This document shows, in pieces, positions 1 through 13,373 of a DNA stretch of 13,373 bases. The position numbers were made by a program, and so were the translations under genes. The stretch is from Promethearchaeota archaeon (GTDB lineage: Archaea; Asgardarchaeota; Lokiarchaeia; Sigyniarchaeales; SOKP01): NCBI GenBank assembly GCA_016926735.1, contig JAFGOA010000015.1, positions 1 to 13,373 on the forward strand, read 5' to 3'. The stretch's first letter is position 1, and each line of letters opens with the position of its first letter. A model generated the notes under the pieces. It was not told the DNA's origin, searched no databases, and saw only the letters and a program-made list of their open reading frames with translations.

Positions 1-2
1 CA

Positions 3-263
3 ATGAAGAATTGTTTAAATTCAAAAAAAAAAAAAAAGAGATTTTCTACAAAATTAATATTTTTTGCTCCTAAAGAACTAAGCTCTAATTCAATCAAAAA
101 AATAAACAAAATAAAACATATTCATGATAAAACTGAACCTCATAAATCAATAAATAAACACGAACCAGTTTGTTCTATTTTAACTAAAAGCAATAATTTT
201 ACAAAATCTTACCAAAAGGCTATGAAAATAGTAAAAAAAATCAATAATATAATTATTTTCTAG
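3..263 (+). CDS. C-terminal fragment of a probable ATP-grasp domain protein (COG2232-like), truncated by the window edge
   Basis: KLIFFAP...IHDKTEPHKSINKHEPVCSILT...AMKIVKKI resembles the K-I-[LY]-AP...D-P--G--I--GEP-C-[TV] C-terminus of archaeal COG2232 ATP-grasp proteins (recognised from memory). The Met at 3 is probably internal. Its stop overlaps the convergent Roadblock gene by 11 nt. Confidence 0.55.
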   Translation: MKNCLNSKKKKKRFSTKLIFFAPKELSSNSIKKINKIKHIHDKTEPHKSINKHEPVCSILTKSNNFTKSYQKAMKIVKKINNIIIF

Positions 264-1014
264 TTAAATCTTTATCTAAAATAGTTTTAATCTCAGCTAT
301 ATAAGCACCAAGCTTTTTTTCGTCTGATTCAGGTACTGCGACACATAATACTCTTGTTTCATCAAGTTCATGAACGATTATCGAACCATTTTCTCCTCCA
401 ATAATAGAATATTCTAGATCGCTATTTTCTAATATAACACCTGATAATTTATAAAAAGCAGCTAAAAGTGCTGAAAGCATAGGTTCTGCCATTGTAGATT
501 GAACTTTAACAGGTAAACCATCTTTTGTTATAATTGCAGTAACTAAAGCATTTGGAATAGCTCTTTTTAATCCCACAAATACTTCTTCTTTTATAATTTC
601 GGAAGTTTCTACAATTGCAGAAATTTTCAAAGCAAATTCTTTTAATTTTGAGATATATTTATTTACTCCTTCTAATTCTGCTAATTCCCTATTTAAAAAA
701 GCAATTAAAGTAATATTATTTGTGATAATTGAAAGAATAATTCTTAATTTTCCAGTAATTAAATCATATGAAATATCCTGATTAAGGGAATTTTTTAATA
801 ATTTAGAAGAGAGGAAAAGGATACTACTATTTGCTGCTGCTATTTCATGATCTTTCATTTTTATTTGCTTTTTAAAATTACTCGCAATAAATGTTCCTCC
901 ATGTGTTCCAATTGCTATTCCTAATAATGCATGGTATTCTTCTAATTGTTTTTCAATCAGTCCAATAAGATCTTTACTTACTTTTTTTATTTTATCCTCT
1001 AAATTATCACTCAT
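253..1014 (-). CDS. Tandem (double) Roadblock/LC7 domain protein (MglB/LAMTOR-like)
   Basis: Two ~120-aa Roadblock-like units: LLGIAIGTHGGTFIASN...EIAAANSSILFLS and LVTAIITKDGLPVK...MLSALLAAFYKLS...YSIIGGENGSIIVHEL...VLCVAV...KLG. AGGT lies just upstream of the ATG on the minus strand. Confidence 0.85.
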   Translation of the reverse strand: MSDNLEDKIKKVSKDLIGLIEKQLEEYHALLGIAIGTHGGTFIASNFKKQIKMKDHEIAAANSSILFLSSKLLKNSLNQDISYDLITGKLRIILSIITNNITLIAFLNRELAELEGVNKYISKLKEFALKISAIVETSEIIKEEVFVGLKRAIPNALVTAIITKDGLPVKVQSTMAEPMLSALLAAFYKLSGVILENSDLEYSIIGGENGSIIVHELDETRVLCVAVPESDEKKLGAYIAEIKTILDKDLTRK

Positions 1015-1107
1015 AAATACCTAATATAAAGAAATCTTTTTAACTGTATCGAAAATTCTATCTTCTTAATTCTAGCTTATGATTAGGTAAAGATCGTTTT
1101 TTTGAAA

Positions 1108-1179
1108 TTTATCAACTGATATCATCCTTAAAACAATTATAGTTATTCGAAAATAGGATCTTATTTTATCAACCGATAT
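1108..1179. promoter_or_regulatory. Pair of 15-bp direct repeats TTTATCAAC[T/C]GATAT (1108-1122, 1165-1179), putative operator sites
   Basis: 14/15 identity, 57 bp apart, with an internal ATCA-N2-TGAT dyad, in a divergent intergenic region. Confidence 0.4.
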
Positions 1180-1522
1180 TCTTATAGAAATTGTTCTGGT
1201 TTTTTTATAAATCAATACTCTGTTAATATTAATTTAGATTTGCACGAATAAGGAATCCGTTTTATTCTTCGTAAGAACAAGGGATAGTAGAAAATTGTTG
1301 TATTTTATAATATTTTTAATAATTTTAATACCCTAATATGATAAAAATATAGAATCAATAAAAATTAAGTTATCTTTAATAATGTATATAAAAAAAAAAG
1401 GTTTTTAAATTGTCAGTAATACAATTTTATTAATTTTTAAATTCAAAATGTTATAAAATTTATCTTATTAAATATTTAATTTTGATTTATCAATATAAAT
1501 TTACAACTTAGAGAATGATAAA

Positions 1523-2341
1523 ATGGAAGAACTAAAAAAACAATTACTAATAAAAGAAAAGTTGATAAATACTCTCCAAGAATCATTAAAAATAAAGGAT
1601 GAGCAAATAAATACAGTTAAAGAATCATTAAGACTAAAAGATGAACAGATAAATAACTTAGAAAGTTCTTTAAATCTAAAAGATCAAAAAATAGATACTA
1701 TGCAAAAATCGTTGGAAATTAAAGAACAACAAATGGTGGTAATAGAAAACTCTCTGATTGATAAAAGTATTTTGCAAGAGAAAGAAGAAAAAATAAAAGA
1801 ATTAGAGAATAATATTGATCTGTTAAATGATGAATTAAATAAATCAGATGATGAATTTGAAAAACTTGAAGCTGAAATTGAAAAGATTAAAAACTCATCT
1901 TTAAAATCGTTAGAAAATAAAATAATAGATTTTACATATGTAAATATTTCAAGTGAGGATATTCTTAGTAAAATGAAAGAAATCTTAGCAGATTCTGTTC
2001 ATAATGTTATGATCGTAACACCAACAATTCTAGATTTACAGGAACTACAATTATATGAAATACGATCTTCTGTTAGTTTAAAAATATCAACTCTAATTAA
2101 TCCCGGAATTGATGAACATGCTCAATTATTAGAAGAATTTGAAAGTCTAGATAATATTTCAATTAGATTATATGAAGGTCAAGATCGTTTTCTTATATTA
2201 AAAGATGGAGAAGAATTGTTATTTGGAGTCATAGGGGATAAAATTAATAATTTTTTAGTATTTCATACAAAAGATGCAAAACATATTTCACTTTTTAATG
2301 CTCTTGTAATGGAAACATGGTTGAGAAGTAAGAAAATCTAA
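1523..2341 (+). CDS. Coiled-coil protein with a C-terminal PLD-like/TrmB-type domain lacking an intact HKD motif
   Basis: The N-terminal ~130 aa are a heptad coiled coil. The C-terminus (ILSKMKEILADSVHNVMIVTP...NISIRLY..DRFLILKDGEELLFG...ETWLRSKKI) has the PLD-fold pattern. Confidence 0.6.
   Translation: MEELKKQLLIKEKLINTLQESLKIKDEQINTVKESLRLKDEQINNLESSLNLKDQKIDTMQKSLEIKEQQMVVIENSLIDKSILQEKEEKIKELENNIDLLNDELNKSDDEFEKLEAEIEKIKNSSLKSLENKIIDFTYVNISSEDILSKMKEILADSVHNVMIVTPTILDLQELQLYEIRSSVSLKISTLINPGIDEHAQLLEEFESLDNISIRLYEGQDRFLILKDGEELLFGVIGDKINNFLVFHTKDAKHISLFNALVMETWLRSKKI
1544..1753 (+). repeat. Five imperfect 42-bp (14-aa) coding tandem repeats
   Basis: LLIKEKLINTLQES / LKIKDEQINTVKES / LRLKDEQINNLESS / LNLKDQKIDTMQKS / LEIKEQQMVVIENS. 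Confidence 0.85.
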
Positions 2342-2393
2342 TAACTATTCATATTAAAAAAATATTAAATATTATTTAATTATTGGATTTTAT

Positions 2394-3290
2394 ATGAGGA
2401 TTTTTATAACTGGGGGTACCGGATTTATTGGTTCTTATGTTGTACAAGAACTCTATAATCATAACCATGAAATAACAATACTTGCAAGAAATCCAAATAA
2501 AGTACCTAATCTCAAAGCATTAAAAGGAGTACTAATAATAAAAGGAGATCTCTCTGAAAAAAAAATTATTTATGAAAATCTAATAGATAAAGATATTTGT
2601 ATACATGTAGCTCTTGGTTGGGGAAATGAGGCAATGACTATGATGACAAATGATACAGTTCCCTCAATATATATTTTTGAGACTTCTGCTAAGTTAGGTA
2701 TAAAAAAAATGATTTATACATCTTCAACAGCAGCAATAGGTAGATATGATATAAACATTGATTCTAGTACAAAATGTCTACCAAAAGATTTTTATGGAGC
2801 TACAAAAGCTTCAAGTGAAAATTATTTACATGCAATTTCATATCAATATCCTATGTTATGCAATATTATAAGACCGGGATATACATTTGGAAATCCAGTT
2901 GTTAAGGGGGCAAATATGGAATCAGATACTCGATTTAGGAACATTATTGAAAGTGTTAAAAACAATGAAGATATAACACTTATTAAATTTGATGGAACTC
3001 AATTTATTTGGGCAGGTGACCTTGCAAAAATCTACTTGAAACTATTAGAATCTAATTTTAACAGAAAATATTATTTTGGATTAGGATATAAATATATTTC
3101 TTGGGAAGCAATAGCAAAAGAAGCAATTATACAAGCCAAATCATCAAGCAAGATCAATTTAATAGATAAAAATTATAATTCAATACCAAAATTATTTGAT
3201 GTTTCTCCTTTAAAAAAGGATTTTGGATTGGAATTTGATTCTTGGGAAAAAATTAGGGAACATATCAAATTTTTGTTAGATAAGTCTTAA
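2394..3290 (+). CDS. NAD(P)-dependent epimerase/dehydratase (extended SDR)
   Basis: TGGTGFIG Rossmann motif, YTSSTAA, catalytic YGATK, IIRPG. Confidence 0.92.
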   Translation: MRIFITGGTGFIGSYVVQELYNHNHEITILARNPNKVPNLKALKGVLIIKGDLSEKKIIYENLIDKDICIHVALGWGNEAMTMMTNDTVPSIYIFETSAKLGIKKMIYTSSTAAIGRYDINIDSSTKCLPKDFYGATKASSENYLHAISYQYPMLCNIIRPGYTFGNPVVKGANMESDTRFRNIIESVKNNEDITLIKFDGTQFIWAGDLAKIYLKLLESNFNRKYYFGLGYKYISWEAIAKEAIIQAKSSSKINLIDKNYNSIPKLFDVSPLKKDFGLEFDSWEKIREHIKFLLDKS

Positions 3291-3294
3291 TATT

Positions 3295-4014
3295 TTAAAA
3301 AAAAAGACACATATCTTTAATACATTTATCATTTTTAATAGAAAAACTGCATTTTTTATGTTTAAAGGGTAAATCTATTTCAAACTTCTCTTTTAGAAAA
3401 GTAATTGCTTCAGAAATTGATATTTTTACTGATCTTTTACAACAATGTTCAAAATTATCTGCTATTTTTGCTAAAGAACAAGAAGTCACTTCATTTGCTA
3501 AACTTCGAGGTATAGCTTTTGACGGTGTAGCTTCTGTAAAGATACTTATAGCAACTCCAGAACCCATAGCTGCTCCACATGATCCATAGAATCCACACCA
3601 TCCTCCTGGGATTTTAGAACTACGGTTTATAGCTTCTTTAATATCATCATATGTAATCTCTTTATCATTTGGTTTTTTTATTCCATTATTTTTTAAAAAA
3701 GTAAGCAGAATAGCAGAAGTTAAAATATGATGTTCAGGACCATACATCTTGAATTTAGGATGGTTCATAACTATTTCAACCATTTTAAATGGGTTTTTTA
3801 GTTTGGTTGATTCACAAAATTCTTTTATTATTTTTTGTGGTTCTTTAGAGTGACATTCATTACAAATATAATGTCCATTTGGACAGTATATATTTGTATT
3901 GAATTCATTTCTGCATAAATTGCATAAGATATTTTTATAATCATTTTGATTAGTAGAATAGAATAAGTCTAATCCACAAATCTCACATTTATCTTGTTTT
4001 GACATAGGTATCAT
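3295..4014 (-). CDS. DUF5714-family Cys-rich protein (N-terminal metal-binding CxxC motifs plus C-GCAxxG-C-C-like domain)
   Basis: CEIC, CNLC, CPNGHYICNECH, GPEHH, GGWCGFYGSCGAAMGSG, CCKRS and a C-terminal Cys cluster. The start may be the second Met (4005). Confidence 0.8.
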   Translation of the reverse strand: MIPMSKQDKCEICGLDLFYSTNQNDYKNILCNLCRNEFNTNIYCPNGHYICNECHSKEPQKIIKEFCESTKLKNPFKMVEIVMNHPKFKMYGPEHHILTSAILLTFLKNNGIKKPNDKEITYDDIKEAINRSSKIPGGWCGFYGSCGAAMGSGVAISIFTEATPSKAIPRSLANEVTSCSLAKIADNFEHCCKRSVKISISEAITFLKEKFEIDLPFKHKKCSFSIKNDKCIKDMCLFF

Positions 4015-4026
4015 TAAATATATTAA

Positions 4027-4881
4027 TCAATTTATATCTACAAAGGAACGCTTTCCTTTTTCATAATGAGCTAATTGAGAAAAGCCAATTTTTTTAAGAG
4101 TTTTCAAAATTTCTTCAAACATATGAGCAATTTCATCAGGTTTATGTGCATCAGAACCTAATAAAATGGGAATATCAAGTTCATATATTTTATCAATAAT
4201 TTCAAAACTAGGATATTGTTCTTTTACTTCTTTTCTGAAACCTCCAGTATTAATTTCTATAGTGAGATTTCTATTTTTTATATTTTCCAAGACTTGTATT
4301 ACTTTTTCCATAATTATTTTTGGGTTTTCAGGAAAATAATTAAATTTTTTAACTAGATCTAAATGAGAAACAATGTTATAATTAAATTCTAGATTAGATA
4401 TCATTTCTATTTGAGTTTTATAATATTGTTCATATACTTCATCAATAGAGTTATAGGATATTTTATATTCTTCTTTTAATAAAGGATCATCAATAGTCCA
4501 TAAACCCTTCATTGAAGGTAATATATGAATTGATCCTAAAAGATAATCTAATTTATTTTTAAATTTTTCAATATGTTTATTTAGTTTGATATACTGATTT
4601 TGAATGTAGTCTATTTCAAAAGCAGTTCTTATATTGATTTTATCTCTGTATTTCATTTTTAAATCATCTATTGTTTCCAAATATTTTTCAACTTGAACCA
4701 TTGTCATAGCATATCCTTGATAAGGAATCTTTTCAAAATTGCTATAAAATTCATAAGGAAAATGATCGCTTATTCCTAAAGTTTCTATTCCCATTTTTAT
4801 AGCATATTGAATATAATCTTCAATAATTCCCTCAGCATGCCCACACATACTATTATGAGTATGCCAATCTTCAAATTTCAT
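4027..4881 (-). CDS. PHP-family histidinol-phosphatase (HisJ/HisK-like)
   Basis: DWHTH, CGHA, ISDHFP, EIDY, GSIH, SHLDLVKK, EINTGG, GSDAH motifs. Confidence 0.9.
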   Translation of the reverse strand: MKFEDWHTHNSMCGHAEGIIEDYIQYAIKMGIETLGISDHFPYEFYSNFEKIPYQGYAMTMVQVEKYLETIDDLKMKYRDKINIRTAFEIDYIQNQYIKLNKHIEKFKNKLDYLLGSIHILPSMKGLWTIDDPLLKEEYKISYNSIDEVYEQYYKTQIEMISNLEFNYNIVSHLDLVKKFNYFPENPKIIMEKVIQVLENIKNRNLTIEINTGGFRKEVKEQYPSFEIIDKIYELDIPILLGSDAHKPDEIAHMFEEILKTLKKIGFSQLAHYEKGKRSFVDIN

Positions 4882-5175
4882 TATAATCTTGAAAATTATA
4901 AAGAATAAATAAAATTATCTGTTAATTATAATAAATTAATCTTAATTAGACACCCTTATTTATTTCTTTTTTATTTTAATAATCAATTTCGAGAAAAACA
5001 CATAAAATGAAAAAAGAATTTGATTTATAATTATTATATCTAATAATATTATATTCATATTAATAAAGAAGAAGGTTCCTATTAGGATTAAATAATAAGA
5101 TTTAAATATGAAATTTGATACTAAAATTCAACAATAGTGTATAGATAATATAAAAAAAAATAATAACAAATGTGT

Positions 5176-5182
5176 AGGAGGT
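5176..5182 (+). promoter_or_regulatory. Shine-Dalgarno site AGGAGGT
   Basis: Perfect SD ending 7 nt before the ATG at 5190, in an otherwise G-poor region. Confidence 0.75.
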
Positions 5183-5189
5183 TATTATA

Positions 5190-5354
5190 ATGAAAGATAA
5201 AAAATTATTTGGTCCTGAAGATGATGATGAAGACTGGGATGATGATGATGATTGGGATGATGATGATGACGATTGGAATGAGGAATATGACGAAAATAAC
5301 GACGGAGATTGGGAAGACATAGATAGCGATGATGATTGGGTTGAAGATGATTAG
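5190..5354 (+). CDS. 54-aa Trp-acidic microprotein (absent from the ORF track)
   Basis: MKDKKLFGPEDDDEDWDDDDDWDDDDDDWNEEYDENNDGDWEDIDSDDDWVEDD*. Strong SD and GC/purine enrichment relative to the flanks. Confidence 0.75.
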   Translation: MKDKKLFGPEDDDEDWDDDDDWDDDDDDWNEEYDENNDGDWEDIDSDDDWVEDD

Positions 5355-5501
5355 AAAAAAAAAAATTAAAAAAGTATTATAATATTGGGATCCATTTTTC
5401 CTTAGTGTTATTTAATTTGATTTTTATAACTATTTTTTTATATAATTTATTTAAAAATATCATAAAGGTTTTAATGTAATATTACCTATTTTTTAAGTGT
5501 T

Positions 5502-5514
5502 AAAAATTTTATAA
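5502..5514 (+). promoter_or_regulatory. Putative archaeal BRE/TATA promoter of aIF1
   Basis: AAAAA-TTTTATAA about 30 nt upstream of the ATT at 5545. Specificity is weak in AT-rich DNA. Confidence 0.4.
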
Positions 5515-5544
5515 GTTAATCAAAAAATACCGTGACATAAAAAA

Positions 5545-5862
5545 ATTACCGAAGATGAAATTTGTCCATTATGCGGGCTCCCGAAATCATTATGTGTTTG
5601 TACTGATCTAAGCGCTGACGAGCAAGAGATTATAATATCCAATGATAGAAGAAAATGGAAAAAAATTGTAACTCTTATTTCTTTTGGTGGAAATACCGAT
5701 GCAGATCTAAAAGATCTTCTGACGAAAGCTAAGAGAAAAATTGGAGCGGGTGGTACCATAAGAGAAAATAGTATTGAACTTATGGGTGATCACCGATTTA
5801 AAATAAAGAAATTTTTAATTGATATGGGGTATGATGAGGATCGAATAAGAATTCAAGAATAA
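5545..5862 (+). CDS. sui1: Translation initiation factor aIF1 (SUI1/eIF1/YciH family), predicted ATT start; absent from the ORF track
   Basis: (I/M)TEDEICPLCGLPKSLCVCTDLSADEQEIIISNDRRKWKKIVTLISFGGNTDADLKDLLTKAKRKIGAGGTIRENSIELMGDHRFKIKKFLIDMGYDEDRIRIQE*. Shows the archaeal CxxCGLPxxLCxC knuckle, basic RRKWKK loop, GGT and IELxGDHR motifs. In-frame TGA upstream at 5533-5535. Confidence 0.95.
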   Translation: MTEDEICPLCGLPKSLCVCTDLSADEQEIIISNDRRKWKKIVTLISFGGNTDADLKDLLTKAKRKIGAGGTIRENSIELMGDHRFKIKKFLIDMGYDEDRIRIQE

Positions 5863-5872
5863 TGGGAGAATA

Positions 5873-5894
5873 TTTTTTTAAAATTTTTTTTTTT
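5873..5894 (+). terminator. Oligo-T tracts, putative archaeal intrinsic terminator of aIF1
   Basis: T7 and T11 runs directly after the stop codon at 5862. Confidence 0.45.
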
Positions 5895-5938
5895 GTTATT
5901 TTTATTTTATAATTTTTATCAAATTTTAGAATCAATTT

Positions 5939-6610
5939 TTAAAGAAAATAATTTGTATTTCTTTTAAGATGTGATTGTATAAATCTTTTTACTTCATCTG
6001 CTGGTGTTATAATTCCATAATGTCCTTCACATAAGAAATCTGCATTAAGATCAATGAGTTTTTTCATAGATTTATAATAATCATTTAGATTAGAATTAAA
6101 CTCTTCTGAAAAGGGCCCATGAATATCTTGACCAAAAAGAATTTTTTTTTGATTTATTTCCAAAAAAATAGAGATAGACCCTGGAGTATGACCTGGAGTA
6201 TGGATACATTTGAGATTTAGATTTCCAAAATTAAGCGTATTAATATCTCCAACAAGTTTTTTATATAATTTTATCGGTTTATATTCAATACCATACCAAG
6301 AAGCTGCTGTTCTATTATTAAACCCTTCTTCTTCTATTGCATTGGCATCTAATTCATGAGCATAAAATTTAATATCAGGATTGAATTCTCTCAATTGAAA
6401 ACATGCATCAATATGATCAATATGACAATGAGTTATAATACAATGTTTGATATACATTGGATCTAAATTTTCCTCTTTTATTGATTTTATTAATTCTAAA
6501 TCCATTCCGCAATCAATTAATATTAAACCATCTTCACTTTTAGAATTAATAATGTAAATATCACACCCGGAGCTTCCAATAAAATAAACATTATCAGTAA
6601 TCTTTTTCAT
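5939..6610 (-). CDS. MBL-fold metallo-hydrolase (glyoxalase II-like)
   Basis: LIDCG, THCHIDH (HxHxDH), HTPGHTPGS, FGQD, EGH. Confidence 0.92.
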   Translation of the reverse strand: MKKITDNVYFIGSSGCDIYIINSKSEDGLILIDCGMDLELIKSIKEENLDPMYIKHCIITHCHIDHIDACFQLREFNPDIKFYAHELDANAIEEEGFNNRTAASWYGIEYKPIKLYKKLVGDINTLNFGNLNLKCIHTPGHTPGSISIFLEINQKKILFGQDIHGPFSEEFNSNLNDYYKSMKKLIDLNADFLCEGHYGIITPADEVKRFIQSHLKRNTNYFL

Positions 6611-6720
6611 AAATTAAAACTTCTATATTAATTTCCTTAAGAAAGATTTTTATTGTAATTAAGTTTTATAATCAAAAAACAATATAATAAATTACTTAAT
6701 TTTAAATTATTTTGATAATA

Positions 6721-7560
6721 ATGGATGATTCTAAGAATATAGTTGATGATTTAAAGAAAAAAGCTTTTTCAGCAAAAATTAAGAATTATTTTAAAAATCT
6801 AGTAGATTTTTCATCTTATAGTAGAAAAACTATAATCTATATTATAATAATGATTATAATTATAGCTATTTCTGCATATTTATTATATATTTTAGTCTTT
6901 GTGGATAGTCAAATTCTATATAGGATAGTTGTAGAATGGTTTGTTAATCCAATATATAGGCTTGGAATTGGTGGTGTATTTCTATTTATTGGGATTATGG
7001 CTCTTCAAGGTTTGCTTATTCCTCTTCCTTCTGAAGTTGTATTATCTGCAGCAGGAATGATTTGGGGGATATTAGTAGGAGGATTAATGGGAATAATAGG
7101 ATCTATGGCAGCAGGGTTATTGTGTTTTTATCTTACAAGAAAGGGAGGGAGACCATTAGCCGAAAAGTTTGTAGGAAAAAATGCTATTGATATCGCAGAT
7201 AAATTTATTCAAAAATATGGAACAAGTGCGATAATAATTGGAAGAGTACTCCCTGTCATACCTTTTGATCTAATAAGCTACACAGGGGGATTAGTTGATA
7301 TTGACACAAAAAAATACACATTAGGTACTTTTATAGGATCTATACCTCGTGCTTTTTTTTATTCTTGGATTGGAGGTACTTTAATAGATGAGGGTTCAAT
7401 CACTTTACCTATTAATTTTAGCACAATGCCAATTGATCTAATAGATAAACAAGCTAATACATTTAATCTAATTCTCTTAATCATTGCTATTGTTTTTATT
7501 GCAATTTTTCTCACATATTATTTTATTGGTCTATACCTAAAGAGGAAATCTTCAAATTAA
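6721..7560 (+). CDS. DedA/TVP38/TMEM64 (VTT domain) membrane protein
   Basis: LIPLPSEVVLSAAGMIWG, GSMAAGLLCFYLTRKGGRP, GRVLPVIPFDLISYTGG, TFIGSIPR. ATG at 6721 is preferred over TTG at 6712. Confidence 0.9.
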   Translation: MDDSKNIVDDLKKKAFSAKIKNYFKNLVDFSSYSRKTIIYIIIMIIIIAISAYLLYILVFVDSQILYRIVVEWFVNPIYRLGIGGVFLFIGIMALQGLLIPLPSEVVLSAAGMIWGILVGGLMGIIGSMAAGLLCFYLTRKGGRPLAEKFVGKNAIDIADKFIQKYGTSAIIIGRVLPVIPFDLISYTGGLVDIDTKKYTLGTFIGSIPRAFFYSWIGGTLIDEGSITLPINFSTMPIDLIDKQANTFNLILLIIAIVFIAIFLTYYFIGLYLKRKSSN

Positions 7561-7645
7561 GATAAAATTTATTCAGATAAATTATTATATTTTTTTTCTT
7601 ATTTTACTATTATATATTCAAATTTAAGGTTCTAAAATAAAAATA

Positions 7646-9445
7646 ATGAATAAAAGTAGGACTTCTATAATTCGAATAATTCAATATTATTGTGAATTAA
7701 ACATAATAATTAATTTTTTAACGATTTGTTGTGTTTTAATTAATTATATCTGTATTCTAAGCTACTTTCTCTCTAATCTTTTTGGTTATATAATATTAAT
7801 AAGCTGGCTTTCTAATATCATTCTATTGATATTAATTGATAAATTTGTGATTAAAGAAAGAGACATTAAAATTAAGTTAAATAAATCATCATATCAATTT
7901 CTTATTACATTTTTTCTAGGTATTTTTTTAATTATTGGAAGTATTACTATTTCAAATCTAATCATTACTGGAATATCATTTACAATTTGGATTTTCATTT
8001 CAAATATGCTTCAAATTATTGGATTCTTGATTATTTCTATTTTTAGCATCAAACTGTCCTATGAATCTATTTTATTCACATCAAAAGATAAAATTGTTAA
8101 AGAAATTATCGATAATTTTAATATTCAATCTAAAGGAAAAAAAATAGTAAAATTATTCTGCTTTATAATTGGTGTTTCGGGAATCTATTTTGTTATTATC
8201 CTCTTATTACCTTTAGAATTCCTTTCTCCAGAATTAGCTATGATAATACCTCAAGTTTCTGTATTTTTGATTTTCCTTTTTATAATAAATTCATTAATTC
8301 TATTCAAATTGATTCCAAAAGATAGAAATAAAATTGAATATAAGAAAAATTCATTTTTTAAAATTAAATCGTTGACAAATAGAAAACGTTATAGACAAGG
8401 GTTATTATCTATGGGATTTATTTTGTCTTTTTTTTTTACATTACCTCTTTTATCAACTCCATTTTCCATTATACATGCTGAAAAAGAGTTTAATGATGTT
8501 TATGGTGAAAATTGGAGGGAACTCATACCTTCAAATTTTAACTCTTTCTTTTTAGAATCTCAATTCAATATGTACAGTTATTTCATGGGAATTCCTCATA
8601 AAGAATGTAATATTATATTAGATACGTTATATTATGAAAACAATAATACTAAATTATTTTTTGATGTATATTTTCCAAAAGGATTAGGTGAAGAACTCCC
8701 TGGAAATAATTCAATTATAATTAAGATTCATGGTGGTGCTTGGAAAATAGGAGATAAAGGAATATTAAATAATCCCGTTATTAGTAAGTATTTAGCTAAC
8801 CAAGGATATATTGTTTTTGATATTCAATATGGACTTATGGCTTTTCAAAACATAAATTTAGATCTAACTCCAGAATATGTTAAAGGAAATTTTACCCTTC
8901 ATGATATGATTTTTCAAATAGGGTATTTTACTAAACAACTTGAATCAACATATGCAACAGAGTATAATGGAAATTTAAATTCTGTTTTTATCATGGGAAG
9001 TTCAGCAGGAGGCCATCTAGCCAGTATTGTAGGTCTTGGTTATGATGATCCTTATTTTGCAGGCAACTTTTCAAGCGCAATCACATTAAAAGGGATAATT
9101 CCTCTTTATCCCCCAAATTCCGCTAACTATTATTTTAACAGATATGAATATAAAAATTTAATACCTGGTGATCCAATCACAAATCCACTTGCTTATCAAA
9201 AATTCACTCCAAGCAATTTAGTTTCTCTTAATGATCCATCTGTATTAATCTATCAAGGTACTCAAGACAGATTAGTTCCTCCAATAAATTCAGAACAAAT
9301 TGAAAATGCTCTTGAAGATATTGGAAAAGATTGCATCAGACTTATGTTTCCTTTTGCTACTCATTGTAATGATTTCTTAACAAATAACAATTTTGCTCAA
9401 GTTTGGTTATATTATTTAGAGCGATTTTTATATTTAAGTAGATAA
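7646..9445 (+). CDS. Multi-TM membrane-anchored alpha/beta hydrolase (HSL-type esterase/lipase)
   Basis: About 7 hydrophobic segments in the first ~275 aa, then HGGAW oxyanion motif, GSSAGG nucleophile, QGTQDRLVP (Asp) and ATH (His). Confidence 0.88.
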   Translation: MNKSRTSIIRIIQYYCELNIIINFLTICCVLINYICILSYFLSNLFGYIILISWLSNIILLILIDKFVIKERDIKIKLNKSSYQFLITFFLGIFLIIGSITISNLIITGISFTIWIFISNMLQIIGFLIISIFSIKLSYESILFTSKDKIVKEIIDNFNIQSKGKKIVKLFCFIIGVSGIYFVIILLLPLEFLSPELAMIIPQVSVFLIFLFIINSLILFKLIPKDRNKIEYKKNSFFKIKSLTNRKRYRQGLLSMGFILSFFFTLPLLSTPFSIIHAEKEFNDVYGENWRELIPSNFNSFFLESQFNMYSYFMGIPHKECNIILDTLYYENNNTKLFFDVYFPKGLGEELPGNNSIIIKIHGGAWKIGDKGILNNPVISKYLANQGYIVFDIQYGLMAFQNINLDLTPEYVKGNFTLHDMIFQIGYFTKQLESTYATEYNGNLNSVFIMGSSAGGHLASIVGLGYDDPYFAGNFSSAITLKGIIPLYPPNSANYYFNRYEYKNLIPGDPITNPLAYQKFTPSNLVSLNDPSVLIYQGTQDRLVPPINSEQIENALEDIGKDCIRLMFPFATHCNDFLTNNNFAQVWLYYLERFLYLSR

Positions 9446-9498
9446 TTAAATCTTTATTAATTATGAATATTAATTTTAAGAATAAAATGAGATAATAA

Positions 9499-10461
9499 TT
9501 GAATATAAGTAAAAAACAGCAAGGATATATTATTTTATTGATAGCTGTATTTTCTTGGTCATTTAGTGAAATTATAGTTAAACTCCTACATAGCAATATA
9601 GGAGTATTAACATTATCTGTTTTTAGATTTTTTATTGGGAGTCTATTCTTACTCTCAATTTTAATAATAAGAAAAGATTTTGTGGGGTTAAAAAAAATTA
9701 TTTTGAATAATCTTCCTATTTTTCTTATTTCAAGCTGTTTTGCTCTAGGATTTTCAAATTTTATATATTTTTTAGGAATCACTTATACAGAAGCAAATAT
9801 AGGTGCTGCAATATATACAACTTACCCAATTTGGATTACGATTTATTCAATATTTATTCTTAATGAAAAAGACAATCTGAAATTTAAATTTCTTGGGATA
9901 TTTTTTGGTGTAATAGGTACGATTATATTAATCACTAAATTTAATTTTTCAGGATTTATCTCGACCGAATATCTAATTGGTAATCTCTTAGTTCTATTGG
10001 GATCTATAATTTGGAGCTTATATTCTGTTTTAGGAAAAAAAATCCAGTTTTCCAATGATGAAATCACTAATTATTCAATAAAATTTGCTATGCTTTCCTC
10101 CTTATTTGCTTGTATTCCATTAATATTGTTCTTAATTTTTTCTCCTGAATTAAAATATTTTTTCAACTATCACCCAGATGAGTGGTTTTGGGTATTATTT
10201 CTTGGGATAATCTGTACCGGTGTCGGTATTTGGTTATTATTTGAAGGTATTTCTTGTCTTGAAGTCTCAAAGGGGATGTCTTTTGCTTTTTTCAAACCTA
10301 TTTTTGCTACAATTTTATCATTTTTTATTTTATCTGAACTTCCCTCACCAATTTTAATCATTTCAATTATAATTATTATAGTATCTATTTTTTTGATTAA
10401 TAAAAATCCAAAAAATCAACATCGATTATTTTATATAATATCTCAGGATCGAAGCAATTGA
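9499..10461 (+). CDS. EamA/DMT family transporter
   Basis: About 10 TM helices in two repeats, with motifs WSFS..IVK, FRF, AAIYTTYPIW...FILNEK, GNLLVLLGSIIWSLYSVLGKK, KPIFATILSFFILSE. TTG start. Confidence 0.9.
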   Translation: MNISKKQQGYIILLIAVFSWSFSEIIVKLLHSNIGVLTLSVFRFFIGSLFLLSILIIRKDFVGLKKIILNNLPIFLISSCFALGFSNFIYFLGITYTEANIGAAIYTTYPIWITIYSIFILNEKDNLKFKFLGIFFGVIGTIILITKFNFSGFISTEYLIGNLLVLLGSIIWSLYSVLGKKIQFSNDEITNYSIKFAMLSSLFACIPLILFLIFSPELKYFFNYHPDEWFWVLFLGIICTGVGIWLLFEGISCLEVSKGMSFAFFKPIFATILSFFILSELPSPILIISIIIIIVSIFLINKNPKNQHRLFYIISQDRSN

Positions 10462-10859
10462 CCTATTTACTCAATTTTGAATCTTATAATAATATCAAAA
10501 GGGAAAAAAAAAACATAGTATAAATTCTTTTTTCTCAAGAATTTTCAACATTTTTTGATATTCATTGTTTTAATTCAATAAATAATATATTTCATGTATA
10601 TTCTATCATTTAAACGTAAATATGATATAATTATTTTATTCTTTCTAGAATTTCATCAATAAGGATGAAAATGAAAAAAAATTGAATATTTTTTCAGGAG
10701 TGTTTATTGAGACTAAAATTTTTTGTACAAAAATCAGAAAATTTTTGTTCGTTTCACTAAAAAGAACTTCGAAAATTATGTCGAATTTTTAATAGAACTG
10801 CTAATATTACTATTTTGGTATTAAATTAACTAACAGAGTTAGGGGTAAGGTATTAAATC

Positions 10860-11114
10860 ATGGAATTTTTTGAAAATTTTAGAGAAAATCTGGAAAATTC
10901 GGTAAAATGGGATTTAAAATGGTTAGAAGAGGAGTTTAAAATACTTTTTAAAGATAATCATTTATCAAATAGTACTAATGTAAATCTTTTAGCAAAAAGA
11001 ATTTTAGAGGTATTTGTTGATAATTTATGTATTAAAAATGATCAAAAAATTTTAGATCTTCTAGACGAAACAATAAGAAAAATCGATACGGACTTTCCCG
11101 GAGTTTTTATCTAG
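10860..11114 (+). CDS. Small helical hypothetical protein (84 aa)
   Basis: SD-like AGGGGT/AAGGT upstream and protein-like amphipathic composition. No family recognised. Confidence 0.6.
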   Translation: MEFFENFRENLENSVKWDLKWLEEEFKILFKDNHLSNSTNVNLLAKRILEVFVDNLCIKNDQKILDLLDETIRKIDTDFPGVFI

Positions 11115-11331
11115 AATAATCCTCGATCTAAAAAAAAAATTCATTTTTTGTACAATATCTCGAAATCTTTAAGAATTAAATAAAAAGATATTTTTTATTT
11201 CTTATTCTCTTAAACTTTGTAAATAAGGACTTTGTAGAGATAATTTTTATATAAATATATTTATTAGTATCTAATATATTTGTTAGAATTAGTGGATTTA
11301 ATTTTTAATACAATAAGATTATTTTAAAGTA

Positions 11332-12432
11332 ATGGAAAGAATTGTAATTGTGCATTGGAACAAAAGTACAGGACCACAGACATTAATACAATATCCTCCA
11401 GAAAAAGAAACTCTACCTAAAGAACTTTTTCTGAAAATTTGGACAATCCATGAATTAAATAAACAAGATAAAATGATTCAATTTACTCCAGATATTATGA
11501 ACACACAATTCATTTCAATTCTTCATAAATACGAAGGTGAGATTTATTTCTTAATCTTAGCTTATAACAAAAAAGATAATATTGAAAATATAGTCAATGA
11601 TTATCCTGATATTTTAGCTAATATTGGAAAAAATCTTATAGATTTAATCAATACAAATAATATAACAAGGGCTATTTCAGAAGCTTTCAATACAATTAAA
11701 AACTATTCTAAATTAGATAAAGAAGAAAATTTATTAAACTTTTTTAAAGATAAAATAAAACATACTATATTAAAGATAATGAGAAATGGAGTAATATCAA
11801 AGACAAAATTAAAAAATATTCTAAAGAATGAATATGGTTTTTCAACAATAAATCTTGATCTTATATTAATGTCTTATATAAGAGAACATTTAATAATAAA
11901 AGAAAACATCCCAGGAAGTAAGGACTGCTACCTTTTAATTAACGATTTAATCTACATGCGATTACCGCCTCAAAACAGTTATAAAACATTAGATAACGTT
12001 GACACAGATAATAAAAATGAAATTTATAATAAATATTTGGAAGAATTAATGAAATTTTATGAGAAATATAATTGTATTCAAGAAAGTAGTAATCTTATGA
12101 TACTTAATTTTCTTTTTGATAAGCAAGTTTACTCACTTTTTAAGGAACTTAGATTAAATGCTTTAACAGTAAATCAATGTTTAAATATATTGAATAATAA
12201 TGAGGTTCTGTTTAATGATTTATTAGAGAATAAATTCATATTTGAGGCCAAAGGAATCGTATTACTTTTTACAGATTTACGATTCATGAGATGTTTTCCC
12301 CAATATCTCCTTAAAATACTTTTAATAAGATATCAGGAAAAAAGGATTACCACAAATGAATTCTTATCTCATTTGAAATTATTATCTAATAAACTAATAG
12401 AATCTCCAAATTTGATATATGAAATTATTTAG
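11332..12432 (+). CDS. Longin/uDENN-like N-terminal domain protein with probable C-terminal winged-helix-like domains
   Basis: N-terminal IVIVHWNKSTGPQTLIQYP matches the hhh-[FW]-x3/4-GP-xh-x2-YP start of longin/uDENN domains (NPRL2, FLCN, DENN). Later ILKIMRNGVISKTKLKNIL...LIIKE looks wHTH-like. Confidence 0.6.
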   Translation: MERIVIVHWNKSTGPQTLIQYPPEKETLPKELFLKIWTIHELNKQDKMIQFTPDIMNTQFISILHKYEGEIYFLILAYNKKDNIENIVNDYPDILANIGKNLIDLINTNNITRAISEAFNTIKNYSKLDKEENLLNFFKDKIKHTILKIMRNGVISKTKLKNILKNEYGFSTINLDLILMSYIREHLIIKENIPGSKDCYLLINDLIYMRLPPQNSYKTLDNVDTDNKNEIYNKYLEELMKFYEKYNCIQESSNLMILNFLFDKQVYSLFKELRLNALTVNQCLNILNNNEVLFNDLLENKFIFEAKGIVLLFTDLRFMRCFPQYLLKILLIRYQEKRITTNEFLSHLKLLSNKLIESPNLIYEII

Positions 12433-12452
12433 TTGATATTTTAGAGGATTAT

Positions 12453-13136
12453 TTATAATAATTTATCTAATTTGATATCAAATTCAAGATTTTTATCAAG
12501 GAATTTATTTTCTTTTCTAATTTTATATGATAATGTTCTTTTAGCACATTCATAAAAACTTTGATATATATTTTTTTCTTTATTAATTAATGCACAAGTT
12601 TCATATATTTTTGGATTTAAGACATAGGGATCATCTTCAGAACCTATCCATAATTTCTCCTGTTTTAAAATATTAATAAAATCAGCAGTTTTTATAGTAT
12701 TTTCTAAATCTTGTTTATTTAGCATAATTATTAGAGGTATCTCATGAATTAATTTATTTTTTGAAAGACTTTTTAATTCTTTTAAAAATTCTATATTCTC
12801 ATCTAAAAGATGTGATTGAGAATCAACAACAAAAATTATTCCATCTGATCCTTCAAATACTTTTTTCCTAAGTGCTGAGAAGCTTCTTTGACCTGAAACT
12901 GTATATGTCATATAAAAAATTTCCCTAGAGGAGGTTGATTGAAATAGTCCTCTATCAAAATATAGTGTAGAACCACTAGCTCTCTCGATTTTTGTAATTT
13001 CTCCCACAGGAGTAATATATTTTCCATTCTTTTTTGTTAGAGTATATAATGTGTCTAATATAGTTGTTTTACCTGAAGCATACATTCCCCAATAAAGAAT
13101 TTTGATATATGTTTTTCCTGATTTAATTGTAACCAT
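12453..13136 (-). CDS. MglA-like small P-loop GTPase (Ras superfamily)
   Basis: KILYWG and G1 GMYASGKTT, G2 STLYFD (MglA RTLFFD), atypical G3 YTVSGQ (MglA YTVPGQ), DGIIFVVDSQ, G4 NKQD, G5 TCA. Confidence 0.9.
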   Translation of the reverse strand: MVTIKSGKTYIKILYWGMYASGKTTILDTLYTLTKKNGKYITPVGEITKIERASGSTLYFDRGLFQSTSSREIFYMTYTVSGQRSFSALRKKVFEGSDGIIFVVDSQSHLLDENIEFLKELKSLSKNKLIHEIPLIIMLNKQDLENTIKTADFINILKQEKLWIGSEDDPYVLNPKIYETCALINKEKNIYQSFYECAKRTLSYKIRKENKFLDKNLEFDIKLDKLL

Positions 13137-13373
13137 TTAATAATATCTCTTTGAATGATATTTTGTCATAGATGAGCTCTAGCATAAATCTTTGATGTTT
13201 CAAGATTTTTTATGGAGTTCAATATTAAATATAATTTATATATTCCTTAAAATATCTTACGATAAGGATCAAATTTAAAAATCTACTTTATAAAATATAA
13301 TTTTTTTATAGCATATTTTGATCAAACTTATAAGTATTATCTGATAAAGAATTTTAAATTAAAAAATAATAAA

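Follow-up and report, generated by a model that had tools for sequence, protein, structure and literature searches.

The gene for translation initiation factor aIF1 in a Loki-type Asgard archaeon has no canonical start codon ahead of its zinc knuckle, and its translation very probably begins at AUU. The gene lies in a 13,373-nucleotide (nt) stretch of DNA, referred to here in its entirety as the window, from Promethearchaeota archaeon (NCBI GenBank assembly GCA_016926735.1, contig JAFGOA010000015.1, positions 1 to 13,373 of the forward strand). Our best overall explanation, to which we assign a probability of roughly 60%, is that the window carries a single, intact aIF1 gene that is started at AUU, that this weak start has been selected, and that feedback by aIF1 on its own synthesis is the likeliest reason for that selection. 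The records of close relatives are titled Promethearchaeota or Promethearchaeia, in agreement with the assignment to the Asgard archaea made in an earlier note on this DNA, which was written from the letters alone.

Downstream of an in-frame TGA (5533–5535), the + strand reads CAT AAA AAA ATT ACC GAA GAT GAA ATT TGT CCA TTA TGC, with no ATG, GTG, or TTG before the codons for the Cys-Pro-Leu-Cys (CPLC) part of the zinc knuckle. From ATT 5545 to the stop codon TAA (5860–5862), the frame contains 105 codons. ATG 5782, the first canonical start in this frame, is codon 82 of the 108 codons between the two stops and residue 80 when counting begins at ATT 5545. The sequence GTGA, which resembles a Shine-Dalgarno (SD) element, precedes ATT 5545 by 9 nt. 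The sequence features described in the earlier note were all confirmed. That note had also stated that the open reading frame (ORF) caller missed the gene. This is correct for callers limited to ATG, GTG, and TTG, and a listing of canonical-start ORFs in the window contained no + strand ORF at the aIF1 position; however, a 105-residue protein, MTEDEICPLCG..., with ATT 5545 read as M, is already on the public record for this DNA. Relatives of 105–106 residues at NCBI carry the name "stress response translation initiation inhibitor YciH", and entries from JGI, Logan, and ENA are 84–97 residues long and have the knuckle cut off. Thus, gene callers that accept only ATG, GTG, and TTG truncate or lose the aIF1 zinc knuckle in this family, and they shorten dozens of other genes in the genome.

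The identification of the product as aIF1, also proposed in the earlier note, was supported by profile and structure searches. The SUI1 domain (PF01253) matched residues 26–96 with 50.7 bits (cut-off 25.5), and a PF01253 search of the whole genome, which is 99.3% complete, returned one SUI1 match (50.9 bits). The product also scored 103.6 bits against NCBIfam NF002096 (cut-off 98), which is the source of the bacterial name YciH; this name is the public label for the relatives, and in an archaeon the protein is aIF1. Methanocaldococcus jannaschii aIF1 (PDB 4mo0) aligned with E = 5.3e-25, pairing query residues 5–103 with chain residues 3–101, so that the N terminus counted from 5545 is two residues longer than that of the characterized protein. 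Similarity to the aIF1 chains of 4mo0, 5jb3, and 5jbh, which include aIF1 solved on the archaeal 30S subunit, extends over the full length, and the window product shares with the M. jannaschii and Pyrococcus abyssi proteins its family, its length, and the succession of zinc knuckle and SUI1 domain. The knuckle reads C-P-L-C-G-L-P-K-S-L-C-V-C in translation, and its Cys columns do not vary among 19 Asgard sequences. Chains of eukaryotic eIF1 also match, with E of about 1e-3. The frame at 5545–5862 is a real, intact, single-copy aIF1 gene.

We compared the 5′ ends of aIF1 genes across the family to which the window genome belongs. A family search gave an aIF1 match in 102 of 121 genomes; the 5′ end was read in 82 species-representative genomes of the family (the window genome, 21 relatives, and a further 20 and 40 genomes), and one locus cut by a contig end (L248) was left out of the counts. 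In 77 of the 82 genomes, the in-frame stop is followed by no ATG, GTG, or TTG up to the first Cys codon, and the start is ATT (74 genomes) or ATC (three genomes). Four loci (L016, L020, L022, and L023) are ambiguous, as their SD-like motif contains a GTG in frame, one has GTG at the homologous codon (L057), and none starts with ATG. The usual layout is AAAGGTTGTGA, 9 nt, and ATT AAA GAC GAC GAx ATT TGT, with the TGA of the motif in frame. ATT by itself is cheap in a genome of 26% GC; it is the whole arrangement of stop, SD-like motif, 9 nt, and ATT or ATC that recurs in 77 of 82 genomes. Within the family, the start has shifted from ATT to ATC, to GTG, and perhaps to ATA, but never to ATG. Since an in-frame TGA is followed by no ATG, GTG, or TTG before the zinc knuckle, ATT 5545 must serve as the start on this reasoning, and we hold with high confidence that AUU 5545 is the aIF1 start codon. 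The earlier note had proposed this codon and had named ATG starts in close orthologs as an observation that would speak against it; AUU is by far the best candidate, and the orthologs retain a near-cognate codon.

Six family genomes contain second, divergent aIF1 loci (L290–L295, 47–51% identity), in which GAGGTGA in frame is followed after 8 nt by ATT or ATA. These loci are either paralogues or contamination; the window genome has one copy.

The onset of coding constraint was located from the entropy of aligned bases in 72 of the 82 loci (59 distinct sequences), selected by a filter that required an ATT or ATC located 18 nt ahead of the Cys codon and itself preceded at 9 nt by GTGA. Over the five codons that follow ATT, the mean entropy was 0.10, 0.12, and 1.02 bits at codon positions 1, 2, and 3, respectively; over the nine bases that precede ATT, the corresponding values were 1.0, 0.65, and 1.16 bits. 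The period-3 coding signature begins exactly at ATT.

As a control, we examined the starts of aIF1A in the same relatives. Among 30 loci, 25 begin with ATG, five with TTG, and none with a non-canonical codon. In the window genome itself, aIF1A (L153; contig C18:8975–9181, − strand) begins with TTG, 6 nt after AAAGGTG, and most relatives have ATG. Two other genes of the window genome that start with ATT were also followed through the family. A scan for plausible coding frames that lack a canonical start near their 5′ end led to rpo7, which encodes RNA polymerase subunit E′ (contig C16:64473–65069, + strand; L100:1498–2094) and begins ATT TTT AAA (M-F-K-L), 7 nt after GGTG. After nine of 30 loci that did not parse were dropped (L112, L119, and L123–L129), the rpo7 start was ATT in 11 family loci, ATC, ATA, and TTG in one each, and ATG in seven; in these parsed loci the start codon lies 6–7 nt after GGTG and precedes TTT AAA. 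The second gene, kae1, which functions in t6A synthesis and encodes the GIESTAH motif (contig C16:67510–68511, + strand; L303:111–1112), has ATT 6–7 nt after AGAGGT. Of 23 parsed kae1 loci in the family (L329, L330, and L333 did not parse and were dropped), 14 have ATG, six have no canonical start, and three are ambiguous.

Expressed as raw counts from related genomes, the share of ATG is thus 0 of 82 for aIF1, 25 of 30 for aIF1A, 7 of 21 for rpo7, and 14 of 23 for kae1. Canonical codons do occupy the homologous position in some orthologues, as GTG does in the aIF1 gene of L057 and as the interchange of ATT, ATG, and TTG in rpo7 illustrates. Because aIF1A mostly begins with ATG and rpo7 and kae1 often flip to ATG, whereas aIF1 never does, the weak aIF1 start looks selected. 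From this comparison of sequences, we consider it probable that selection holds the weak start in place.

The survey was extended to other Asgard lineages. In sister families of the same order, aIF1 starts with TTG in four genomes and with GTG in two; two genomes of one sister-family genus have ATA and no canonical start; and ATG is found in one genome of family f2 and in both genomes of family f4, with one further genome having both ATG and TTG in frame. Cultured relatives from this order have a TTG start on aIF1 in the loci examined. In loci L024 and L027 (genus g17 of a sister family), GTG-xxx-TGA stands directly upstream in frame and is followed by AAA AAC ATA CCA, an arrangement that resembles an ATA start preceded by a start-stop frame of two codons. 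In another order of the class, aIF1 has an ATA that follows GGTGAT by 4 nt. Among 65 loci from other Asgard families, 33 have ATG, 19 have GTG, 12 lack a canonical start, and one is ambiguous. The 12 loci without a canonical start use CTG in two families, about 10 nt after AGGAG in f10 and after GGAAGGTG in f7, and ATA in two others (f12 and f18), 9 nt after AGGAGG. Family f10 is a second Asgard family in which a weak start is conserved on aIF1: its 20 genomes comprise 13 with GTG, six with CTG only, one that is ambiguous, and none with ATG.

Outside the Asgard archaea, ATG predominates. An Archaea-wide sample yielded 80 loci with an aIF1 alignment, of which 74 bear titles that name no Asgard lineage (some only "uncultured archaeon"). 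ATG begins 71 of these 74, as in a Methanocaldococcus sp. locus (L229) that reads ATG CCA GAA ATT TGT; two have GTG, and one, from Hadarchaeota, has CTG only. In this Hadarchaeota metagenome-assembled genome (L220), CTG lies 8 nt after AGGAGGTG and aIF1 has no canonical start; two other loci from Hadarchaeota or Hadesarchaea have ATG. Weak or near-cognate aIF1 starts are a recurrent Asgard trait and not an archaeal rule. Since many Asgard and nearly all other sampled archaeal aIF1 genes use ATG, start-codon feedback, if any, is lineage-specific.

We examined the region upstream of the start codon for signals of transcription and ribosome binding. When the upstream regions of 39 family loci were aligned on the start codon and compared by eye, a block, AAAGATTTTTATAAGATTTTATTCTATTATTTTTTAG, was common to many of them about 50–85 nt upstream of the start. 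The promoter-like block in the window suggests a putative transcription start that would give a leader of approximately 45 nt. A second TATA-like sequence, TTTTATAAG at 5507–5515, is poorly conserved and could serve as the promoter instead, in which case the leader would be very short. The predicted fold of the leader contained no regulatory hairpin (minimum free energy −5.9 kcal/mol, z = +1.0, with 172 of 200 shuffled sequences as stable). The ORFs on either side, at 5190–5354 (+) and 5939–6610 (−), are separate from aIF1, and the gene appears to be monocistronic. No RNA run was listed as containing this stretch, and sequence words of the aIF1 region are almost absent from the source study's two metatranscriptome runs, a result that is uninformative on expression.

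Since the 16S rRNA 3′ end (contig C116) reads ...GGATCACCTCCT, GTGA can pair with its tail. Most family members have the longer AAAGGTTGTGA where the window has GTGA, and in the genus of the window CCGTGA replaces GGTTGTGA; in the family form AGG-TT-GTGA, seven of nine positions pair with the 16S tail. Of the 2168 ORFs in which ATG is the first canonical start, only 277 have a 5-mer SD. The aligned spacing at these 277 sites peaks at 4–7 nt and tails to 10 nt, with 41 of 277 sites at 9–10 nt. The SD-like GTGA described in the earlier note is therefore present at the spacing given there, but it is weak both in pairing and in spacing. The features of the region are collected in Table 1.

Table 1. 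Features at the aIF1 locus, in window coordinates
Feature	Position	Strand	Basis or comment
Promoter-like block, BRE/TATA-like AAAGGTTTTAATGTAA... then T-rich ...TTTTTTAAG	5464..5497	+	Resembles block AAAGATTTTTATAAGATTTTATTCTATTATTTTTTAG in many family rows
SD-like GTGA	5532..5535	+	Complementary to UCAC of the 16S 3′ end; its TGA is the in-frame upstream stop
Mini frame GTG ACA TAA, out of frame with aIF1, beginning at the GTG within the SD-like motif	5532..5540	+	Read from sequence
ATT (AUU), probable aIF1 initiation codon	5545..5547	+	Sole near-cognate codon at the right place; family conservation; period-3 onset; public gene call
aIF1 (SUI1 family) coding sequence	5545..5862	+	105 codons plus TAA; N-terminal zinc knuckle C-P-L-C...C-V-C, then SUI1 domain
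T-rich tract 3′ of the stop codon, likely archaeal oligo-T terminator	5872..5905	+	Read from sequence

How might a weak start on this gene function? In the mechanism that we propose, aIF1 would be transcribed from its own promoter into an unstructured and probably leadered mRNA. Translation would begin at AUU 5545 by near-cognate pairing with initiator Met-tRNA, and the weak SD-like GUGA 9 nt upstream would assist initiation at that codon. As aIF1 would destabilize initiation complexes on non-AUG codons, more aIF1 would mean less initiation at its own AUU, and less aIF1 would mean more, forming a negative feedback loop. By analogy with the systems described below, we put the chances that the AUU start works as feedback through the level of aIF1 at about even.

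The bacterial gene infC, which encodes initiation factor IF3, is a close parallel in design: a factor that rejects non-canonical starts is made from a conserved AUU behind an SD-like site. Autocontrol was reportedly lost when the infC AUU was changed to AUG. That experiment belongs to infC, and control of aIF1 is argued here by analogy; moreover, other genes of the Asgard genome also use AUU. IF3 and aIF1 are unrelated in fold, as stated in the review PMC4705826. Eukaryotic eIF1 (SUI1) is a homologue of aIF1, and PMC6237735 describes inhibition by high eIF1 of its own poor-context AUG, making a weak initiation site on the mRNA of a fidelity factor the proposed sensor. The two differ in where the weakness lies: in eukaryotes it is in the sequence context of an AUG reached by scanning, and in aIF1 here it would be in the codon itself, which is near-cognate and belongs to an mRNA that has an SD-like site. 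Biochemical precedent comes from archaeal aIF1 itself. In Sulfolobus solfataricus, 30S complexes form on both AUG and AUU mRNAs without aIF1 and only on AUG mRNAs with aIF1, according to PMC4705826, which cites Hasenohrl 2009, so that this aIF1 discriminates against AUU in vitro. Binding to the 30S P site and rejection of non-AUG codons are reported for the S. solfataricus and P. abyssi factors in PMC6237735 and PMC4705826. The non-Asgard archaeal aIF1 genes sampled above differ from the window gene in their own starts, 71 of 74 being ATG.

To judge whether AUU is peculiar to aIF1, we counted, throughout the genome, in-frame codons located before the first canonical start and preceded by a 4-mer SD, and compared a spacing of 4–9 nt with a control spacing of 14–19 nt. 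ATT was found 69 times at the SD spacing versus 39 times at the control spacing, and ATA 54 versus 35 times, giving an excess of about 50 sites for ATT and ATA together. No such excess was seen for AT-rich control codons (AAT, 53 versus 45; AAA, 52 versus 59; TAT, 23 versus 25; TTT, 30 versus 31). A version of this test that gave no ATT or ATA excess was flawed, since it dropped sites with GTG or TTG within 12 nt and hence the GGTG-type SDs. Among 3306 non-overlapping ORFs of at least 80 codons, 53 have their first canonical start past the midpoint, a figure that makes no clean control, since most of these frames look non-coding. Candidates for ATT, ATA, or ATC starts with convincing N termini include an ABC ATPase, small GTPases, a GPN-loop GTPase, an XPD-like helicase, and a protein with an amino-acid-kinase fold. 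Further candidates are a metallophosphoesterase (C4:27773–28333, ATC) and Cas2 (C182:9688–9990). In searches of the whole assembly with ARAGORN, with and without introns, we found one tRNA-Met(CAU) and no clear initiator tRNA. This tRNA-Met(CAU) lies in a cluster of three tRNAs, Ile-UAU, Met-CAU, and Ile-GAU, within about 800 bases (contig C157:7347–8122).

Several alternative accounts concern where, or whether, translation of aIF1 begins. The missing start might be an artefact or a sign of decay, through assembly error, a pseudogene, or a frameshift from ATG 5555, which with a one-base slip would read M-K-F-C-P-L-C; runs of A and T do occur in the region. We regard this as extremely improbable. 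A contig from an independent public run (X3) covers 187 nt over 5467–5653 with no differences, the X2 contig covers 5408–5561 with two differences, none of them listed at 5530–5560, and the source run (X1) yielded short partial pieces only. Assembly error as the source of the missing canonical start is excluded, and neither the X3 nor the X2 contig shows the ATG or restoring indel over 5530–5560 that the earlier note had raised. ATG 5555, which arises from GAA GAT GAA, is out of frame, opens a frame of 18 codons, and is kept by the genus alone. A one-base miscount of the A7 run at 5539–5545 brings no canonical start into frame, and reading through TGA 5533 adds six codons before TAA 5512–5514, none of which is a start. 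As for decay, the frame is intact to its normal stop, resembles solved aIF1 along its entire length, is the sole aIF1 gene of a nearly complete genome, and shares its layout with 77 of 82 species. Initiation at the second ATT (5560), the Ile codon before the first Cys, would yield a 100-residue protein. ATT 5560 is the sole other in-frame near-cognate codon ahead of the knuckle, but it sits 24 nt from GTGA, and the Ile that it encodes is conserved before Cys in archaeal aIF1, two to four residues after Met. Because the four codons that separate the two ATTs show period-3 conservation, these codons are evidently translated; and in L057 it is the upstream ATT that is replaced by GTG. We therefore give a start at 5560 very little credence. 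The N-terminal peptide predicted from the sequence for a start at 5545 is (M)TEDEICPLCGLPK, and that of most relatives is (M)KDDDICPICSFPK. Only slightly less doubtful is that the GUG of the SD-like motif starts a mini frame of two to six codons and that ribosomes reach the aIF1 AUU by termination and reinitiation. The window and the majority of family loci do contain a GTG followed by a short frame that ends at or just before ATT, in most relatives with a TAA that overlaps ATT-AAA. However, short frames are expected after any GTG at 26% GC, the overlap stems from ATT-AAA, which is coding, and the window mini frame ends 4 nt before ATT without overlap. In addition, the mini-frame GTG lacks an SD at a workable spacing, the AGG ahead of it being 2 nt away, and other Asgard lineages have a plain AGGAGG, 9 nt, and ATA with no such GTG. 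The mini frame is probably incidental.

A more serious rival accepts the AUU start and denies its regulatory meaning: aIF1 would be one case of a general use of AUU, AUA, and AUC, with a low constitutive aIF1 level or a nearly neutral start and no sensing. We think this rather unlikely, and several observations that favor it also weigh against feedback. AUU initiation appears to be a habit of the lineage: rpo7, kae1, and about 50 other genes of the genome appear to begin with ATT, ATA, or ATC, and many of the candidates are plausible. The earlier note's emphasis on the aIF1 start thus survives in part, as the AUU is conserved and looks selected but is not special to aIF1. Since AUU and AUA starts are not rare in the genome, a weak start does not have to imply regulation, and this lineage's aIF1 is evidently tolerant of AUU starts. 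ATG is used by many Asgard aIF1 genes (33 of 65 loci outside the class, two f4 genomes, and one f2 genome) and by 71 of 74 other archaeal loci. The 82 family genomes share one ancestor, so that their count is one of retention and not of 82 events. The SD-like element of the window is only 4 nt long, its 9 nt spacing lies in the long tail of the genome, and transcription from the proximal TATA-like box would leave GTGA outside the mRNA. Selection for low output alone fits as well as feedback, and constitutively low output without sensing, which is the main rival, fits the sequence data almost as well. What speaks for selection acting specifically on aIF1 is that rpo7 and kae1 flip to ATG within the family and aIF1 does not, that aIF1A in the same genomes mostly has ATG, and that near-cognate or GTG-only aIF1 starts have arisen separately in several Asgard families, with codons that differ between them (AUU, AUA, and CUG).

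A broader form of the feedback explanation is more tentative, and we doubt it somewhat more than we believe it. Asgard archaea may repeatedly have put aIF1 under a near-cognate or weak start (AUU/AUC, AUA, CUG, GUG/CUG), so that synthesis of the factor would report on how stringently starts are selected and correct it; such a loop's set point might also govern a hidden regulon of 1–3% of genes, including rpo7 and kae1.

Fidelity factors that limit their own synthesis through a poor start are known in bacteria (IF3) and in eukaryotes (eIF1), and the two proteins are unrelated. Should Asgard aIF1 behave likewise, all three domains would share the principle. The archaea closest to eukaryotes would then have their own equivalent of the IF3 and eIF1 loops, and the eIF1 loop might be older than eukaryotes. 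In full-text literature searches, no paper turned up that deals with archaeal aIF1 having a non-canonical start or controlling itself, or with AUU or AUA starts in Asgard archaea, and the archaeal initiation papers that we searched by term describe no regulation of aIF1 through its own start. As far as these searches show, the wider use of AUU, AUA, and AUC in the lineage is unpublished. The gene call itself is already public; what is new is the reading of a conserved and apparently selected near-cognate start on the proofreader of start codons, together with the count of aIF1 starts throughout the family, their comparison with the starts of aIF1A, rpo7, and kae1, and a phylum-wide survey that also takes in other archaea.

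Elsewhere in the window, we noted a gene for a Roadblock/LC7-domain protein (253–1014, − strand) and one for an Arf-family small GTPase (12453–13136, − strand). Genes of both kinds are of eukaryotic type and are typical of Asgard genomes.

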